A stretch of 64,000 nt of DNA from Patescibacteria group bacterium (GCA_049322955.1 JBMOPU010000033.1:128784-192783); one strand, 5' to 3'. Shown: positions 36,367 through 59,465, counted from the first letter of the stretch. Translations and numbers: made by a program. The notes: generated by a model from the letters alone, not told the origin.

Positions 36367-36425
36367 CAGCGCACGATCCCGCTAAGCGGGACGAACATTC
36401 GACTCCACCATGGACTTTATGCTTG

Positions 36426-36498
36426 TCGGGGCGACACGATTTGAACGTGCGACCACACGACCCCCAGCCGTGTGCTCTACCAACTGAGCTACGCCCCG
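36426..36498 (-). tRNA. tRNA-Pro (anticodon GGG)
   Basis: Hand-folded cloverleaf. Acceptor is C1-G72 with A73. D-arm is GCTC/GAGC. Anticodon stem is CACGG/TCGTG with loop CTGGGGG. T-arm is GCACG-TTCAAAT-CGTGT. The 3' CCA is not encoded. Confidence 0.85.
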
Positions 36499-36516: not shown

Positions 36517-36564
36517 CATTCACTTTGGGACGAAACCTACGGTTTCTTCCCAACGATCTTCCCT
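36517..36564. repeat. direct repeat copy 1 (48 nt) in the tRNA-Pro/recA divergent intergenic region. It contains the bulged hairpin 36525-36553.
   Basis: cattcactttgggacgaaacctacggtttcttcccaacgatcttccct. It is identical to copy 2. Confidence 0.85.
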
Positions 36565-36595: not shown

Positions 36596-36643
36596 CATTC
36601 ACTTTGGGACGAAACCTACGGTTTCTTCCCAACGATCTTCCCT
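36596..36643. repeat. direct repeat copy 2 (48 nt, period 79 nt). It contains the bulged hairpin 36604-36632.
   Basis: 48/48 identical to copy 1. The flanking (t)aatagga is also shared. Confidence 0.85.
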
Positions 36644-43294: not shown

Positions 43295-44518
43295 ATGAAA
43301 TACTACATTAAAACCTTCGGCTGTGCCGCCAACGAAGCGGATTCAGAGCGTGTTGCGGCCTTTTATGAAGCCCGGGGGTATTCGCGTGCCCGATCAATGA
43401 AAACCGCAGATGATGTGGTGATCAACACCTGTATGATCAGGGCATCCGCCGAACATCGTGTCTACGGATTAGTGCACAACCTCACCCAGGAAAAGAAAAA
43501 AGGGAGGAAAGTGAAAATTGTTGTTACCGGGTGCATGGTCGGTATGGCGGCACGAGAAAAAACCGGACGGATGCTTTCCGTACTTGCCAAAAAAATGCCC
43601 GGGGTCGATGAATTTCTGCCCATTGAAGAAGTAGGGTTTGATTTTGCGCCACTCCGAAATGATCCGCATCATGCGCTGGTTCCCATCACCAACGGATGCA
43701 ATAATTTTTGCACCTTCTGCGTCGTTCCATTTACCAGAGGACGGGAGATCAGCAGGCCGATGCGCGATATCATATGCGAGATTGAAGAATTGGCAAAAAG
43801 GGGTGTAGCACATGTCACCCTTGTCGGGCAGAACGTCAACTCCTACGGCGCGGATTTGCTTTTGGGAGCGGATAACGTTCAGACCATGAGGGATCTTCCC
43901 GACAAAAAATACTTTCGTGATGAGACTATTGCCGAACAAACGAATAAAATCTTTACGGTGGACGGCAAAAAAGTAAAACCCACGTATGTGAAACATTTGG
44001 GTCGCTTACGGATTCCGACGCTTTTTCCAGAGTTGCTTCGAAAGATATGTGCCATAGACGGCATAGAGCTTATCGACTTTATTTCCAGCAATCCGTGGGA
44101 TTTTTCTGAAGATTTGATAGATGTAATCGCAAAAAATCCGAAAATATCACGGCGACTCCATCTCCCGGTGCAGGCGGGGGACAACGAGGTACTCCGGAAG
44201 ATGAACCGATGGTACACACGCGAAGAATACCTGTCGCTCGTAGAAAAACTCAAAATGCATATCCCCGGAGTTACCATCAGCACCGATATTATCGTGGGAT
44301 TTCCGGGAGAAACGGAAGATCAATTTAATAATACCGTTGATTTGGCGAAACATGTGGGATTTAGTAAGGCGTATGTGGCGATTTATTCCGACCGTCCGAT
44401 GACGGCGGCCCATAAAGTTCTGTCGGATGATGTACCATATAAAGAAAAGAAACGGCGATGGCGGGTGCTTGAAGAACTCATCAATATCACTAACTTACGT
44501 GCGGGCACCTATCAATGA
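43295..44518 (+). CDS. miaB: MiaB-family radical-SAM methylthiotransferase lacking the C-terminal TRAM domain
   Basis: MTTase N-domain Cys triad plus the radical SAM motif CNNFCTFC. The protein ends about 45 aa after the radical-SAM core. It overlaps the miaA start. Confidence 0.7.
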   Translation: MKYYIKTFGCAANEADSERVAAFYEARGYSRARSMKTADDVVINTCMIRASAEHRVYGLVHNLTQEKKKGRKVKIVVTGCMVGMAAREKTGRMLSVLAKKMPGVDEFLPIEEVGFDFAPLRNDPHHALVPITNGCNNFCTFCVVPFTRGREISRPMRDIICEIEELAKRGVAHVTLVGQNVNSYGADLLLGADNVQTMRDLPDKKYFRDETIAEQTNKIFTVDGKKVKPTYVKHLGRLRIPTLFPELLRKICAIDGIELIDFISSNPWDFSEDLIDVIAKNPKISRRLHLPVQAGDNEVLRKMNRWYTREEYLSLVEKLKMHIPGVTISTDIIVGFPGETEDQFNNTVDLAKHVGFSKAYVAIYSDRPMTAAHKVLSDDVPYKEKKRRWRVLEELINITNLRAGTYQ

Positions 44519-45477
44519 GAGCACTTGTTGTCGCCGGAACAACGGCAACCGGAAAAACTGCATTAGCACTGAGTCTCGCCAAACGTTTTCACGGCGAACT
44601 GGTGAGTGCCGATTCGCGACAAATATATCAGGGATTGCGGGTGCTTTCCGGACAGGATGTCCCGCCGGGTGTCCGGCCTGTTTTTTGTAAAGAAGTCATT
44701 CATAAATCACATCGATACCCGCTTGTTACCTATGCAATCGAAGGGATTCCCGTGTGGTTGTATGATGCCCTTACTCCTTCGCAACCGTGCAATATCTCGC
44801 TCTATCGTGCTCTCGCTCTTGAGGCCATACGAGATATTTCCGCCCGAGGGAAACTTCCGATTATCGTCGGCGGCGCGGGATTATATATTGATGCGATTTT
44901 TTTGCCCCCCGAAACGATCGATATCCCCGTCAATGCGGCGCTTCGCCACCGGCTCACGCTGGTTCCCGTTCCTTTGCTTCAAAAACAATTACAGGACATT
45001 GATGCCGCAAAGTACGGACGCATGAATAATTCGGACAGAAATAATCCCCGTCGCTTGGTACGGGCTCTTGAGGTGGCGGTATGGCAACAGCGCCATCCCC
45101 ATGTCAAACCGAGCGGACAGGAATCGGTCGAAGGATTATGGATAGGTCTCACCAGGGATTCTGATGAACTTTCGTCACGTATCGCATCGAGAGTGGACAA
45201 ACGTTGGCATGGAGCGATTGAAGAGGTAAAGCGCATACGTGCTCTTGCATCTTTCGCGGTGCGCACGTCGCTGGGGGTAGCGGAAATTACCGCCTATCTT
45301 GACGGCGCGCTTTCAGAACGGGAAGCGAAGGAGCAATGGACGAGGAACGAACATGCATACGCGCTACGGCAACTGCGGTGGTTTAAAAAACGGCAATATA
45401 TATATTGGTACAATGCGGCAAGCGAGGATACTCAGCGACTAGTGGTGGAGAGGGTGAGCGGATGGTATACTAAATAA
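44515..45477 (+). CDS. miaA: tRNA dimethylallyltransferase
   Basis: P-loop GTTATGKT and the IPT fold. Confidence 0.85.
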   Translation: MRALVVAGTTATGKTALALSLAKRFHGELVSADSRQIYQGLRVLSGQDVPPGVRPVFCKEVIHKSHRYPLVTYAIEGIPVWLYDALTPSQPCNISLYRALALEAIRDISARGKLPIIVGGAGLYIDAIFLPPETIDIPVNAALRHRLTLVPVPLLQKQLQDIDAAKYGRMNNSDRNNPRRLVRALEVAVWQQRHPHVKPSGQESVEGLWIGLTRDSDELSSRIASRVDKRWHGAIEEVKRIRALASFAVRTSLGVAEITAYLDGALSEREAKEQWTRNEHAYALRQLRWFKKRQYIYWYNAASEDTQRLVVERVSGWYTK

Positions 45478-45480
45478 ACT

Positions 45481-46464
45481 ATGCCGACAAAGATCGAAAT
45501 ATCCCATCGAACCATTATTTTTACCCTGATCCTGTTGGGAAGTCTTTGGTTTATCCTGCAGATAAGGGATATACTCTTTTTACTCTTTATTTCGTTTATC
45601 CTCATGTCGGCGCTTCGACCCCTTGTGGACGGACTGGAGCGGATGCGCATTCCGCGGGTCGTTTCCATTCTGTCTCTTTACGGACTTATTTTCGGCGGCC
45701 TAGGTGCGTGGGTGGCAAGCATGATTCCCTCGCTTGTCAGCCAATCGGGAAAACTGTTTGCTCAGCTACCGGAGTTTCTTTCCCGGGCATTCCCATACAT
45801 ATCATCGGATATTCAATCACTGATGCAACAGGTGGCTCCCGTTGGAGAAAATCTGCTTCGGGTAACCGTCGGGGTGTTTTCAAATTTGATTTCGATGTTC
45901 ACCGTCATGACTTTTACGTTCTATTTTTTGCTGGAACGACGGCATCTTCGTGATATGTTGGCAACACTGCTTGGTGACGCTACGGGAGAACGGGTATTTG
46001 GCGTTCTTATCCAAATTGAAAAACGGTTAGGTGCCTGGGTGCTCGGCGAATTGTGCCTTATGGGTATCGTGGGGATATTGGTGTATGCGGGATTGTTTTT
46101 CCTGCGCGTTGAATTTGCGCTTCCGCTTGCCATATTGGCAGGAATTTTGGAAATTGTGCCTACCATCGGTCCCACCGTATCGGCAATACCCGCTGTTCTG
46201 GTCGCGTTCGGGAGTTCTCCGCTCTTAGCGATCTCGGTCGTTGCTCTCTACATCATTGTCCAACAGATTGAAAACAATTTGCTTGTGCCGCTGGTTATGC
46301 GAAAGAGCGTAGGATTATCTCCCGTCCTGACCATTCTTGCGCTTATGATCGGAGGACGGTTTGGCGGAGTTACGGGTGCGATCCTTGCAGTGCCGGTACT
46401 GTTGGCCATACAGGAAATCGTTAATTCATTCCCCGTAGGAAACCAAAAGCCAAAGAAAGAATAA
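45481..46464 (+). CDS. AI-2E family (PerM/UPF0118) transporter
   Basis: Eight TM helices in the AI-2E family pattern. Confidence 0.75.
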   Translation: MPTKIEISHRTIIFTLILLGSLWFILQIRDILFLLFISFILMSALRPLVDGLERMRIPRVVSILSLYGLIFGGLGAWVASMIPSLVSQSGKLFAQLPEFLSRAFPYISSDIQSLMQQVAPVGENLLRVTVGVFSNLISMFTVMTFTFYFLLERRHLRDMLATLLGDATGERVFGVLIQIEKRLGAWVLGELCLMGIVGILVYAGLFFLRVEFALPLAILAGILEIVPTIGPTVSAIPAVLVAFGSSPLLAISVVALYIIVQQIENNLLVPLVMRKSVGLSPVLTILALMIGGRFGGVTGAILAVPVLLAIQEIVNSFPVGNQKPKKE

Positions 46465-46487
46465 CTCGGCATCTTCCCGGATTTTTT

Positions 46488-46670
46488 ACGCACCTTGGGA
46501 TCCTCGGGCTACACGCGCACTCCGCGCAGTTCACAAAAAACCCATATTTCTATGGGTTTTCTTGGTGCACCTTGGAATCCTTGGGGCTACTCCCGTGTTC
46601 TCCCTCGGTATAAACAAAAACTCATGTTTAATCATGAGTTTTTGTTTGCACCTCAGGATCCTCGTAAGCC
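46488..46670. repeat. degenerate tandem array of about 2.5 copies with an ~80-nt period. Each unit has a 24-nt motif GCACCTYRGRATCCTYG…GCYAC (46488, 46566, 46647). A palindromic terminator-like hairpin follows the first two motifs (46535-46560, 46616-46643).
   Basis: Read directly from the sequence. The array lies inside a 616-nt non-coding gap (46465-47080). Confidence 0.6.
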
Positions 46671-47080
46671 AGATTCTGTTTTGAGACACTCATTTCTCTG
46701 TGCCCGTACTCTTTGGTCCTCCCGAATGCGTGGTAGTAACGGACCGGTCGCCGGTTGCAGCGGGTGGGATTGCCAACGTTTCACCCATCTTCCGAGCCGA
46801 GTTTCGGCTGGCGGCTGATGATCGTCTCTGTGGCTCTCTCAACCTGTCGATTCAGATATCGTTCCTTATCTCTTTCGAAATAAAGACACCCGATCTTTCG
46901 ACGCTCCGCTTACACGGAGTCCCCTGCATTCTGCTGTCTGGACTTTCCTCCCGCCCTCACTGCCCAAAGGGCTGAGAGGCGAGCGAGTGTCCGGGTTCCC
47001 AAGGTACAGCTTATAGTATATATCATATGTGTAAGATATTCCACTGAAACGGCCGGGGATTCGGGGTATGGTGAGAAGTA

Positions 47081-48610
47081 ATGCTTGCCAAAATCCTGTC
47101 CGGAGCAGTGGTCGGATTAACGCCGGTTCCCATTACCGTTGAGGTTGATATTTCATCAAATAGTCTCCCTTCATTTACGATTGTCGGCCTTCCCGACAAA
47201 GCGGTTGAGGAAAGCAAAGAGCGGGTGCGCGCGGCTATACGAAACAGCGGCGCTTCATTTCCCGATCATCGGGTGACGGTTAATCTTGCGCCCGCTGATC
47301 TCCCCAAAGCCGGTCCCGCCTATGATCTCCCGATTGCCGTGGGTATTCTTATCGCCTCGGGGCAGTTACCGCCGCTTACGAAAGAAGCACTTTTCTTAGG
47401 CGAATTGTCACTGGACGGCACCCTCCGACACACGAATGCGGTGCTCCCCATCACGATGATGCTCAAGGGGAACAAAACAACAAATACCTGTTATGTGCCG
47501 CTTATTGATGCCAAAGAAGCCGCCGTGACCGGCGGCATCGTCGTGTATCCCGTGCCATCCCTTATCGGGTTGTTTCACCATCTTACCGGTACAACGAAAA
47601 TTATTCCCCAAACGCATACGGATATTTCATTGTCCGCCTCGCCGTCCGCGTTTGCGTTCGATTTTTCCGACGTGGCAGGACAGGAACAGGTAAAGCGGGC
47701 GCTCGAAATCGCGGCGGCGGGAGCGCATAACGTATTCATGCAGGGACCGCCCGGAGCGGGAAAAACAATGCTTGCCAGGTGTTTGCCTTCGATCCTTCCC
47801 CCCATGACGGAGGAAGAGGCACTTGAGGTAACGAAGATATACTCCATTACCGGCAACTTGCCTCCGGGAGAATCACTTGTTACCTTTCGTCCGTTTCGTT
47901 CACCGCACCACACGACCTCGCGAGCGGGATTAATCGGCGGAGGTGCAAAACTTATCCCGGGTGAAATATCTCTTGCGCATCGGGGCGTACTTTTTATTGA
48001 CGAGTTGCCGGAGTGTCCCCGACATGTCCTTGAGGCATTACGTCAGCCAATTGAAGACGGTGTCGTCACCATTTCCCGTGCGGCGGGATCCGTACAGTAT
48101 CCGGCAAAATTTATGTTTGTCGCGGCGGCAAATCCGTGTCCTTGCGGCAACTTTCGTTCGGTGACACGCGAGTGTACCTGTTTGCCTGCGGCAGTGCTTC
48201 GGTACCAAAAGCGTATCTCAGGGCCACTTATGGATAGAATTGATATGCACGTTCATGTGCCGACCGTCGCCACTGAAAAACTTATCGGCGGGGGGAATGC
48301 CGAATCTTCGTATATCGTCCGCAGACGTGTGCAACGGGCAAGGGCACGACAGTGGGAACGATTGCGAAAGCTTGGGGTATCCGCCAACGCCGAAATGACG
48401 ACAAAACAAGTAAAGGAATATTGTCCGTTAACCCCTGATGTCCGTGAATTTATGCGCCACGCGGTATCCCGTTTCTCTCTTTCCGCGCGAAGCTATTACC
48501 GGGTCATTAAGGTTGCTCAAACCATTACCGATCTTTGCGGCGGCAATACTATCACACTCCCACATGTTGCCGAAGCACTGCAATACCGGGCAAAAGACGC
48601 ATCGGTATAG
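47081..48610 (+). CDS. YifB/ComM-family Mg-chelatase-like AAA+ ATPase
   Basis: N-terminal Lon-like domain, AAA+ Walker A GPPGAGKTMLA and C-terminal domain, typical of YifB. Confidence 0.85.
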   Translation: MLAKILSGAVVGLTPVPITVEVDISSNSLPSFTIVGLPDKAVEESKERVRAAIRNSGASFPDHRVTVNLAPADLPKAGPAYDLPIAVGILIASGQLPPLTKEALFLGELSLDGTLRHTNAVLPITMMLKGNKTTNTCYVPLIDAKEAAVTGGIVVYPVPSLIGLFHHLTGTTKIIPQTHTDISLSASPSAFAFDFSDVAGQEQVKRALEIAAAGAHNVFMQGPPGAGKTMLARCLPSILPPMTEEEALEVTKIYSITGNLPPGESLVTFRPFRSPHHTTSRAGLIGGGAKLIPGEISLAHRGVLFIDELPECPRHVLEALRQPIEDGVVTISRAAGSVQYPAKFMFVAAANPCPCGNFRSVTRECTCLPAAVLRYQKRISGPLMDRIDMHVHVPTVATEKLIGGGNAESSYIVRRRVQRARARQWERLRKLGVSANAEMTTKQVKEYCPLTPDVREFMRHAVSRFSLSARSYYRVIKVAQTITDLCGGNTITLPHVAEALQYRAKDASV

Positions 48611-48615
48611 CTTTT

Positions 48616-49773
48616 CTATGAGCGGTGTAACTGCTGTATGCCGAAGCCGATACCCAACATGACAAACGGTACGATGGGCAAATAGTAACGGGGTTCGTTG
48701 AATACGCAATATGAAAGTACGCTTGCCGTAACCACCGCTCCGGATGCAAGAAATAACAGTTGTTTTTGCGAAACGGTGCGATAACGGGCATTCCATAGAA
48801 AAATAATCAGGCTGAGTATCGCCGCTCCCGTAAGCCACATAGGAAAAACATGATGAACGAGTGAAGCTATACGGGACTGCGGGCTCAGGAGTACATGTGC
48901 CGGATTCACCCGGGAAAAATAGGCGACATGCTCGTCGGTGATGAGCACTCTGTCCCTGAATTGTGCCAACGGGCCATACTCGGGGTAAAAAAAGAAATTC
49001 GGATGGAGGATGAGAAATACCAGCAAACACGAGAATACCGTCACGCCGAGTGCCGCACCGTATTTCCGATACGGAAAACCCGACTTTTTATTGAGCGCGT
49101 ATGCCATGAGGAAGGCGATGATCGGGAGAAAAAGTAATCCGTTTATTTTGGTGCTGACGAGCATACCCAACGCAATGCCGATCGCCGCAAAATTTCCCCA
49201 TGATCTTCGATGCCAAAAAAGTGACAACAGCAGAATCATTTGCCACAACAGAAGAATTCCGTCGGAGAACGCATGGGTGGCGACATGGGTGACGATGGGA
49301 TGCATGCCGAAGAGTATTGTGGCAAGTGCCGCGGAAAGCGCCGGGAGACCGATAAGGATCCCTAACGGATAGAGGAGGGAAATAGCCAACGCGGTTATCA
49401 CAGCGGAAATAATCCGTGCATGAATAACCAGGGAGAAAGCCGCGTGATCAATCGGAAACGGCATCGGTTCGAATGATATCCATCGGTAATAGGTCTGAGG
49501 AGCCGTTCCCGTTATCCGTACGTCGCGATGTCCGAACAGCAGTAGCCCTACTCCATACACATATTTGGCGCCGTTAAAGTTGGTAAATCCGTAATTTTCC
49601 CGCCACAGCGGATTTTTTGTGTCCCGGTTTTGTAACAGGTGCACCGTGTTCGCCGTGCTTATCCAATACATTTCATCGGTGAAAAAAGCGACCGTATTTC
49701 TATAAATCGGGATTAGGTAAATCACCAATGCAACACCAAACAACAAAAATGTAATCGCGAGGTGTTTGTGCAT
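48616..49773 (-). CDS. polytopic membrane protein, putative GT-C glycosyltransferase (GT39/GT83 ArnT/PMT-like)
   Basis: About 11 TM helices. A DE-x-Y motif (TDEMYW) lies in the first periplasmic loop, as in ArnT/PMT enzymes. Confidence 0.5.
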   Translation of the reverse strand: MHKHLAITFLLFGVALVIYLIPIYRNTVAFFTDEMYWISTANTVHLLQNRDTKNPLWRENYGFTNFNGAKYVYGVGLLLFGHRDVRITGTAPQTYYRWISFEPMPFPIDHAAFSLVIHARIISAVITALAISLLYPLGILIGLPALSAALATILFGMHPIVTHVATHAFSDGILLLWQMILLLSLFWHRRSWGNFAAIGIALGMLVSTKINGLLFLPIIAFLMAYALNKKSGFPYRKYGAALGVTVFSCLLVFLILHPNFFFYPEYGPLAQFRDRVLITDEHVAYFSRVNPAHVLLSPQSRIASLVHHVFPMWLTGAAILSLIIFLWNARYRTVSQKQLLFLASGAVVTASVLSYCVFNEPRYYLPIVPFVMLGIGFGIQQLHRS

Positions 49774-59309: not shown

Positions 59310-59465
59310 AAGCAGGCGCTGATGGTCTGACACACCGGAGCTTTTCGGGGTAATAACCGAGACGGGTACGCCCGTTACAGCAATAAAGAGAAAAAAATAA
59401 GGTGGTACCGCGAATTACCCGTTCGCCCTTATCCTAGTAAGGAGAACGGGTTTATTTGTGGCATA
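59310..59465 (+). promoter_or_regulatory. T-box riboswitch-like leader of aspS. It has the conserved T-box sequence AAGGUGGUACCGCG (59399-59412) and a terminator hairpin (59417-59452) plus a U-run.
   Basis: ataaGGTGGTACCGCGaatt matches the T-box consensus (AGGGUGGNACCGCG). It is followed by acccgttc…gaacgggt TTATTTG. GAC triplets occur upstream. Confidence 0.55.

Follow-up and report, generated by a model that had tools for sequence, protein, structure and literature searches.

The DNA analysed here (hereafter the window) is a stretch of 64,000 nt from a Patescibacteria group bacterium (GCA_049322955.1 JBMOPU010000033.1:128784-192783), and the element in question is a 616-nt gap at 46465-47080. 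The gap lies between two plus-strand genes, one for an AI-2E family transporter (PF01594; 45481-46464) and the other, comM/yifB (47081-48610), for a Mg-chelatase-like AAA+ protein. Its minus strand holds a predicted rnpB, the gene for the RNA of ribonuclease P (RNase P), at 46648-47007; this gene is convergent with the transporter gene and divergent from comM. Read along the minus strand, the order is rnpB, a hairpin (T1), a repeat unit (unit B), a second hairpin (T2), a second repeat unit (unit A), and a tail without a hairpin that abuts the stop codon of the transporter gene. The comM protein places the host in Candidatus Gottesmanbacteria of the Candidate Phyla Radiation (CPR)/Patescibacteria, with 89% identity to the best reference genome. 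Given that the same 616-nt gap is present in six independent metagenome assemblies (L001-L006; 0-6 differences each), we conclude that it is not an assembly artefact.

A sensitive Rfam scan of the gap returned a match to RF00010 at 47002-46649 that spans model positions 1-367 of 367, with a score of 68.5 bits and an E-value of 1.5e-20 (1.1e-18 when the whole window is scanned). Both universally conserved P4 sequences are present, GAGGAAAGUCC on the 5' side (46950-46940) and ACAGAAnCnGGCUUA on the 3' side (46679-46664). The 5' strand of P4 (46940-46950, minus strand) can be read directly from the sequence, aligns to the model consensus and is invariant in 13 relatives; the 3' strand, ACAGAAUCUGGCUUAC (46664-46679, minus strand), is likewise aligned by the model and invariant among the relatives. 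When 13 rnpB sequences of the clade were aligned (alignment A1) and submitted to RNAalifold, 98 pairs were predicted, and 42 of the 98 carry compensatory double changes. Covariation supports P1, P2, P3, P8, P9, P15-type helices and hairpins after P4; the pairs of P1 covary at alignment columns 2-16 and 380-395. From the Rfam match, the conserved P4 sequences and the covariation, we identify the predicted minus-strand RNA of the gap as RNase P RNA of bacterial class A, in a reduced CPR form.

Two segments of the RF00010 model, of 43 nt and 24 nt, are shrunk in the alignment to 2 and 0 nt, respectively, and 49 nt are inserted after P9, where extra hairpins are found. We assign the missing segments to P13/P14 and P18; this assignment comes from our own comparison with the E. 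coli structure and not from the output of a tool. The window RNA is like the CPR-type class A RNase P RNAs described previously (PMC8172020) in its full model span, its conserved P4 strands and its covarying helices. Nothing essential appears to differ, although the window RNA is predicted to have two extra hairpins after P9 and a P3 that is longer than in its relatives (by ~19 nt, in the window alone). In the relatives L009, L104 and L108, 20-45 nt that form an additional hairpin are inserted between the 3' strand of P2 and the P4 segment ACAGAA (columns 330-360 of alignment A1); this hairpin is not found in the window, L007 or L096. The rnpB of L108 scores best against the archaeal RNase P model.

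The pairing of P1 stretches the ends of the RNA to G47007 and C46648. The 5' strand of P1, GUACCUUGGGAACCCGG (46991-47007, minus strand), pairs with 46648-46663, and the RF00010 alignment, the motif match described below and the covariation agree that the latter segment, GAGGAUCCUGAGGUGC, is the true 3' strand of P1, with which rnpB ends. A putative -10 box, TATACT, is located at 47015-47020 (minus strand), 7 nt upstream of G47007. The relatives share this arrangement, with TATACT or TATAAT placed 6-8 nt ahead of the G of the P1 5' strand, and its conservation suggests that TATACT is an element of the rnpB promoter. An earlier reading made from the sequence alone (the sequence-only reading) had described the ~400 nt on this side of the gap as GC-rich and had proposed that the region could encode one or more structured small RNAs. 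The 3' two-thirds of the gap is indeed structured RNA, but it belongs to one well-known gene on the minus strand, and the enrichment in guanine and cytosine (GC) is marginal: the GC fraction is 0.51-0.56 at 46650-47020, versus 0.46 in the array and 0.49-0.59 in the flanking genes.

The remainder of the gap is occupied by the array. A 16-nt motif core, GAGGATCCYRAGGTGC (minus strand), occurs at 46490-46505, 46567-46582 and 46648-46663 with at most 2 mismatches and nowhere else in the 64 kb, where 0.09 matches are expected by chance; none of 100 shuffled sequences reached three matches. Start-to-start spacing of the copies is 77 and 81 nt, as the sequence-only reading had noted, and the units are 76-80% identical over 25 nt. 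Tandem Repeats Finder reports no array in the gap, and only periods of 12-15 nt in the whole window, because the units are too degenerate for it to call. The copy at 46648-46663 is the P1 3' strand and therefore the end of rnpB itself, so that the other two copies are duplicates of the gene's 3' end; the suggestion of a decayed repeat array was thus correct, and it can now be tied to a gene. A dispersed or mobile repeat was also considered and rejected, the motif being absent from the rest of the window.

Directly after the gene lies T1 (46612-46647, able to fold on both strands), a symmetric module of A-tract, hairpin and U-tract (AAACAAAAACUCAUG-6 nt-CAUGAGUUUUUGUUU), which is likely the intrinsic terminator of rnpB judging from its fold and its occurrence in relatives. 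Its core arms, 46616-46626 and 46633-46643, can be extended to 46612-46647, and its predicted folding energy is -23.4 kcal/mol on the minus strand (z-score -6.5) and -23.9 kcal/mol on the plus strand (z-score -7.1). In L007, L008, L096 and L114, a T1-type module is likewise located after rnpB or after an extra copy. Next comes unit B (46567-46611, minus strand), which consists of a spacer (UUUAUACCGAGGGAGAACACGGGAGUAGCCCC) and motif copy 2 (AAGGAUUCCAAGGUGC, 46567-46582) and has homologues in L007 (twice), L008, L096 and L114. It is followed by T2 (46535-46562, both strands), a second hairpin (AAAACCCAUA-4 nt-UAUGGGUUUU; arms 46537-46546 and 46551-46560) with a U-tract, for which the fold is predicted at -17.6 kcal/mol (z-score -3.6) on the minus strand and -13.9 kcal/mol (z-score -2.0) on the plus strand; T2-type modules are also found in L007 and L104. 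By sequence comparison, unit A (46490-46534, minus strand) is again a spacer (GUGAACUGCGCGGAGUGCGCGUGUAGCCC) plus a motif copy, copy 3 (GAGGAUCCCAAGGUGC, 46490-46505). Its decayed tail, GUAAAAAAUCCGGGAAGAUGCCGAG (46465-46489, minus strand; compared with L007 and L096), has no hairpin left, and L007 has an intact hairpin, AAAAAUCCCAC...GUGGGAUUUUU, at the matching position.

The two palindromic hairpins quoted by the sequence-only reading are therefore real and stable. Each sits 4-6 nt past a motif copy on the minus strand and ~25 nt past one on the plus strand. Because of the 4-6 nt spacing, we assign the hairpins to the minus-strand reading, and hence the array is a reiteration of cassettes made of the rnpB 3' end and a terminator. 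T2 would likely serve as a back-up terminator for rnpB read-through and as the first terminator met by the convergent AI-2E transporter transcript. The hairpins are like known bidirectional intrinsic terminators between convergent genes in that they are flanked by A- and U-tracts, are stable on both strands and lie between convergent units; they would differ in being stacked, with each one tied to a copy of the upstream gene's 3' end.

Similar copies accompany rnpB in other genomes. At 11 of 32 Microgenomates rnpB loci, a second copy of the locus's own 'GCTTAC + P1-3'' segment lies downstream of the gene, with 15-20 of 22 positions matching (shuffle p <= 0.007; shuffled sequences reach ~12 of 22). 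The distance is 68-102 nt, or ~160 nt for the best match in the window and in L007. Including L008 (p = 0.027) and L053 (by eye, with a 1-nt indel) raises the number to ~13 of 32; the comparison with relatives proposed by the sequence-only reading thus reveals extra copies at many loci, although more than half are without one. Past the second copy there is usually another hairpin, different from the first, with a U-tract. P1 sequences vary between lineages, and each extra copy matches the P1 of its own genome. Furthermore, the arrays accompany rnpB whatever gene lies downstream (e.g., L029, L033 and L042).

Within the Gottesmanbacteria clade, the number of units is one in L009, L089, L091, L094 and L105, two in L008, three in the window, L096, L104 and L114, and four in L007. 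From the pattern scan of metagenomes used here, about ten chance matches inside coding regions were dropped (L088, L092, L099, L101-L103, L107, L110 and L112). In L089, L091, L094 and L105, rnpB and the convergent AI-2E transporter gene meet end to end, and no hairpin terminator is recognisable. The order of units varies as well: L007 carries a near-identical duplication of ~160 nt that spans units B and A, and L096 has the modules of the window in circularly permuted order. The motif variants ...CCUGAGGUGC, ...CCCAAGGUGC and ...CCCGAAGUGC each form the true gene end in certain genomes and occur as an extra copy elsewhere, and the terminator types T1, T2 and T2' are likewise recombined among the relatives. 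In L029, the second unit (P1-3' copy plus terminator, TAATCTTCAGAGTATTTGGACAAACCCCACCGCAAGGTGG..., ~95-150 nt past rnpB) is almost identical to the genuine rnpB 3' end and terminator of L044, and the gene end of L029 itself differs from this second unit. It seems, on comparison of the two sequences, that in L029 a new gene end has pushed a former one downstream.

Mobile elements that target the 3' ends of transfer RNA (tRNA) and transfer-messenger RNA (tmRNA) genes duplicate that end, forming attachment (att) sites, and the extra copies could accordingly be scars of site-specific integration by an element that was later lost. Indeed, what has been copied here is the final ~16-22 nt of a stable-RNA gene; the two occurrences are direct repeats, as they are at tRNA att sites, and the close match between the L029 second unit and the L044 gene end could be read in the same way. 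However, the copies are just 68-102 nt apart (~160 nt for the outermost), at a similar period in many lineages (~80 nt in the window), and neither an integrase nor cargo is found between or beside them, the neighbours being the transporter gene and comM. Moreover, the motif is not found at any other place in the 64 kb, and the number of units shifts by single units, with the 160-nt block of L007 freshly duplicated, which is the behaviour of a tandem array. We therefore regard integration as a very improbable origin of the copies.

An architecture of this kind exists in E. coli, where tandem repeats of 113 bp in the 3' flank of rnpB were reportedly described by Reed & Altman in 1983; the repeats themselves are confirmed here on sequence. 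To our knowledge, these repeats have been long known and never explained. In an E. coli O157 strain (L087), the last ~50 nt of rnpB and the terminator recur once at a 113-bp period, giving two units, with 91% identity over one 82-nt segment and three occurrences of a 22-nt segment. In E. coli K-12 (L116, 300-1000), three full 113-bp units are followed by a diverged fourth. The E. coli rnpB terminator is known as rnpB T1 (PMC3643576), and the gene yields a 3'-extended precursor that is processed by RNase E (PMC10126417). In the literature searched, we found no description of rnpB 3' repeats in CPR or in other phyla outside E. coli.

The window and the E. coli arrays are alike in several respects. 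In both, head-to-tail units lie directly downstream of rnpB and start inside its 3'-terminal part; a unit comprises the P1 3' strand, a short spacer and, except in unit 3 of the window, a likely intrinsic terminator, and the P4 core is not kept; and the number of units varies (two versus three to four among E. coli strains, and one to four among the clade relatives). They differ in period (77-81 nt in the window versus 113 nt), in host (the window being from a CPR bacterium) and in the extent of similarity, since units of the window share 14-16 of the 16 core positions and little else whereas those of E. coli are 89-100% identical over ~80-197 nt. In addition, the window alternates two unit types, A and B, with different terminators, and its units 1 and 2 have a hairpin and U-tract (z-scores -6.5 and -3.6) while unit 3 does not (z-score +0.7); all full E. 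coli units have one. When the sequences are read directly, the 113-bp unit and the units of the window share the conserved GGCUUA but cannot otherwise be aligned. Thus the resemblance, as far as it can be judged by sequence comparison, is architectural, and the two arrays likely have independent origins.

To assess how the array evolves at short range, we compared the six strains. The array has 5 variable sites in 184 nt, rnpB has none in 354 nt, and the rest of the locus varies at 0.38% of sites (Fisher p = 0.001). Together with the changes in unit number and order described above, this is how a recombination-prone tandem array under weak sequence constraint behaves. In L001 and L004, an adjacent double change, TG->CA at 46496-46497, makes motif copy 3 read ...CCUGAGG..., identical to copy 1. 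This double change looks like a signature of gene conversion.

The same evidence bears on the proposal that the first 200 nt of the gap encode one or more independent small RNAs, on either strand and unrelated to rnpB, or that a protein gene with a frameshift is concealed in the gap. Both strands give stable hairpins, and open reading frames (ORFs) of 91-107 aa can be drawn across the gap. Nevertheless, the other Rfam matches in the gap are at chance level (E > 0.02), the units are homologous to the rnpB 3' end, and they are both fast-evolving and absent from close relatives. As to a protein, none of the five ORFs that overlap the gap (up to 107 aa, with TTG or GTG starts) matches a Pfam family at E <= 0.1, and they are located within the gene of a covarying RNA or on the strand opposite to it; the protein-coding reading was rejected, in agreement with the sequence-only reading, which had seen no credible ORF here. 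Either form of this proposal is, in our view, hardly credible.

A different origin for the units would be an old tandem duplication of the whole gene, with each unit an internally deleted rnpB copy, a 'mini-rnpB' pseudogene in which both P1 strands were kept. Five of 16 unit-2 segments do fold as a P1-like stem closed by a small hairpin with z-scores of -2 or below (L007, L034, L042, L044 and L056), although most units fold no better than shuffled sequence. Local traces of a 5' strand can also be pointed to: UACC-GA-GGGA in unit B of the window corresponds to UACC-UU-GGGA in the genuine 5' strand (p = 0.043 by local alignment), and the E. coli unit has CTATAC...GAAAGC where the promoter and +1 region has CTATAC...GAAGC. 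However, in 12 of 13 genomes the spacer is not significantly similar to the genuine promoter and 5' end. Local alignments of the spacers with the 5' end, with and without promoter-proximal sequence, gave p-values of 0.04-1.0 and a combined p of 0.44, and the idea was rejected as a general claim. We consider such an origin quite unlikely.

Taken together, our preferred explanation, to which we would give a probability of about 85%, is that the gap consists of a minus-strand rnpB and of tandem duplicates of a cassette, the rnpB 3' end plus a terminator, that have been reshuffled by recombination. This explanation builds on what the sequences show: rnpB can be identified, the motif copies are homologous to its 3' end, both hairpins are stable, and relatives differ in how many units they have and in how these are ordered. 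Transcription would probably start at about G47007, downstream of the conserved TATACT box, and the RNA would end at C46648, the last base of helix P1. The intrinsic terminator T1 would act directly after the gene and would be followed by two modules of ~80 nt, each with a degenerate repeat of the 16 nt that end rnpB (the P1 3' strand), of which the first appears to have kept its terminator, T2, and the second to have lost it. Such modules would arise and be reshuffled by unequal recombination, replication slippage and gene conversion between short repeats; duplication and reshuffling of a cassette account for the relatives that have one to four units in different orders and for the finding that any motif variant can be joined to the gene body. 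In a very compact genome, T1 and T2 may together form a two-way terminator stack that stops rnpB transcription, read-through from it, and the convergent transcript of the AI-2E transporter gene. The extra P1 3' strands would then be by-products of duplication, kept similar by gene conversion and serving as no separate functional RNAs; no positive evidence for a role of the extra copies at the RNA level was obtained.

Several observations weigh against this explanation. Firstly, the 68.5 bits of the rnpB match are below the gathering threshold of RF00010 (100 bits), and an Rfam scan at the gathering threshold reports nothing in the gap and only a tRNA; the Rfam scan suggested by the sequence-only reading hence finds RNase P RNA, but below threshold. 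CPR RNase P RNAs are known to fall below Rfam cut-offs, often without P13, P14 and P18 (Lui et al. 2021, PMC8172020), and the window RNA resembles them both in its score and in the missing segments that we assign to P13/P14 and P18. The Gottesmanbacteria-type rnpB genes score 62-73 bits against RF00010; alignable homologues above the cut-off are found in more distant relatives (L044, 112.5 bits; L024, 105.3 bits). Secondly, a consensus promoter scan of 46300-47200 found nothing, and a simple consensus terminator scan of the same interval misses both T1 and T2 despite stable hairpins that are followed by a U-tract, UUUUUGUUU or UUUUUUG. We regard such scanning as uninformative for this interval and attribute the missed terminators to the A/U-rich stems, which would absorb the U-tract. 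Thirdly, unit A has no hairpin, its fold having a z-score of +0.7, and several relatives have one recognisable hairpin or none between rnpB and the transporter gene, which means that a terminator stack is not required. The bidirectional terminator stack put forward by the sequence-only reading is accordingly plausible, given A- and U-tract hairpins that are stable on both strands, but would not be obligatory. Transcription, 3' ends and termination at the locus are themselves what we infer from these features.

A further difficulty lies in the pattern of conservation. Within genomes, the identity of the P1-3' copies between units is 0.75, compared with 0.57 for the next 36 nt (shuffle null 0.46; Wilcoxon p = 0.0035), which plain neutral decay after one duplication does not predict. 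Some force must therefore keep the copies similar to the genuine end: the pattern needs either gene conversion over ~22 nt of homology or selection. To see whether the extra strands are more than by-products, the differences between extra copies and genuine strands were scored for preservation of pairing with the 5' strand. Of 62 differences, 26 preserve pairing, where a null that weights transitions predicts 21.5 (p = 0.14). A uniform null is exceeded (p = 0.0008), but transition bias and shared ancestry account for this. The conversion event seen at the strain level is a sufficient non-selective explanation for the similarity of the copies.

Selection on the extra P1 3' strands at the RNA level would nevertheless be a conceivable force, and we rate it as unlikely. 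In transcripts that read through T1, an extra strand might offer the rnpB 5' strand an alternative partner, or act in cis as a signal for processing or decay; the repeat would then be, with the same low likelihood, a regulatory module of RNase P RNA biogenesis. The greater conservation of the motif between units, relative to the adjacent terminator, would follow from this, and in L036 and L037 the extra copy tracks the covarying P1 of its own genome despite the dissimilarity of T1 and T2. Every motif variant remains able to pair with the 5' strand, and copy 3 of the window pairs better than the genuine end. The arrangement also recurs in CPR lineages and in E. coli, and the E. coli gene, as noted, makes a 3'-extended precursor that needs RNase E (PMC10126417). 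On the other hand, pairing is kept no more than the transition-weighted null predicts, no part of the locus evolves faster than the array, over half of the rnpB loci examined (close relatives included) lack an extra copy, and the double change in L001 and L004 moves to weaker pairs and looks like gene conversion. There is thus a slim chance that the reiterated rnpB 3' strand and terminator constitute a selected, cross-phylum module of RNase P RNA biogenesis that captures or marks T1 read-through transcripts; if this were true, it would explain both the architecture shared by E. coli and CPR and a motif conserved above its neighbouring terminators.

Under the cassette-duplication explanation, the locus is an ordinary, easily missed CPR-type rnpB with a decayed tandem array of a known kind, a curiosity and no new system. 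It does show that an essential ribozyme gene is missed by annotation at the Rfam gathering threshold in this CPR genome, and recognising rnpB accounts for the apparently empty 616-nt gap and removes the spurious ORFs. The E. coli rnpB 3' repeats also gain a structural counterpart in very distant, genome-reduced bacteria, in which units are gained, lost, permuted and converted on short time scales. What remains puzzling is why the architecture recurs and why the copy of 16-22 nt is preferentially maintained. The end of a heavily transcribed, terminator-bearing rnpB may be intrinsically prone to duplication, or stacked terminators may confer a modest benefit where genes converge within ~200 nt. 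In either case, the loci provide a tractable comparative data set for telling gene conversion from selection on very short repeats.

As for the wider setting, the gene order at 43295-49773, shared by L001-L006, is a miaB-like radical SAM enzyme, miaA (IPPT), the AI-2E transporter, rnpB (minus strand), comM and a PMT-family glycosyltransferase (minus strand). rnpB adjoins comM at ~35 of 80 Microgenomates loci, in either orientation. A second repeat was found beside the gene for tRNA-Pro(GGG) (36425-36498, minus strand), whose putative leader contains two perfect 48-nt direct repeats, at 36517-36564 and 36596-36643, with a period of 79 nt. These lie downstream of a TGGTTATAAT box, each unit forms a hairpin (UUGGGAAGAAACC-GUA-GGUUUCGUCCCAA), and the 192-nt leader folds at -72.1 kcal/mol (z-score -4.75). 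With a seed of 11, no other sizeable direct repeat at short range is found in the 64 kb. The leader repeat and the rnpB array are thus both duplications with a period of ~80 nt, located beside the only two stable-RNA genes detected in the window. The tRNA-Pro gene does not encode a 3' CCA: the acceptor 3' strand, CGCCCCG, is followed by the discriminator A and then by CAAGC. Finally, a T-box leader match was observed at 59310-59433 (plus strand), which covers the full model span at E = 4.8e-9 with a score of 54.2 bits, below the gathering threshold of 93.

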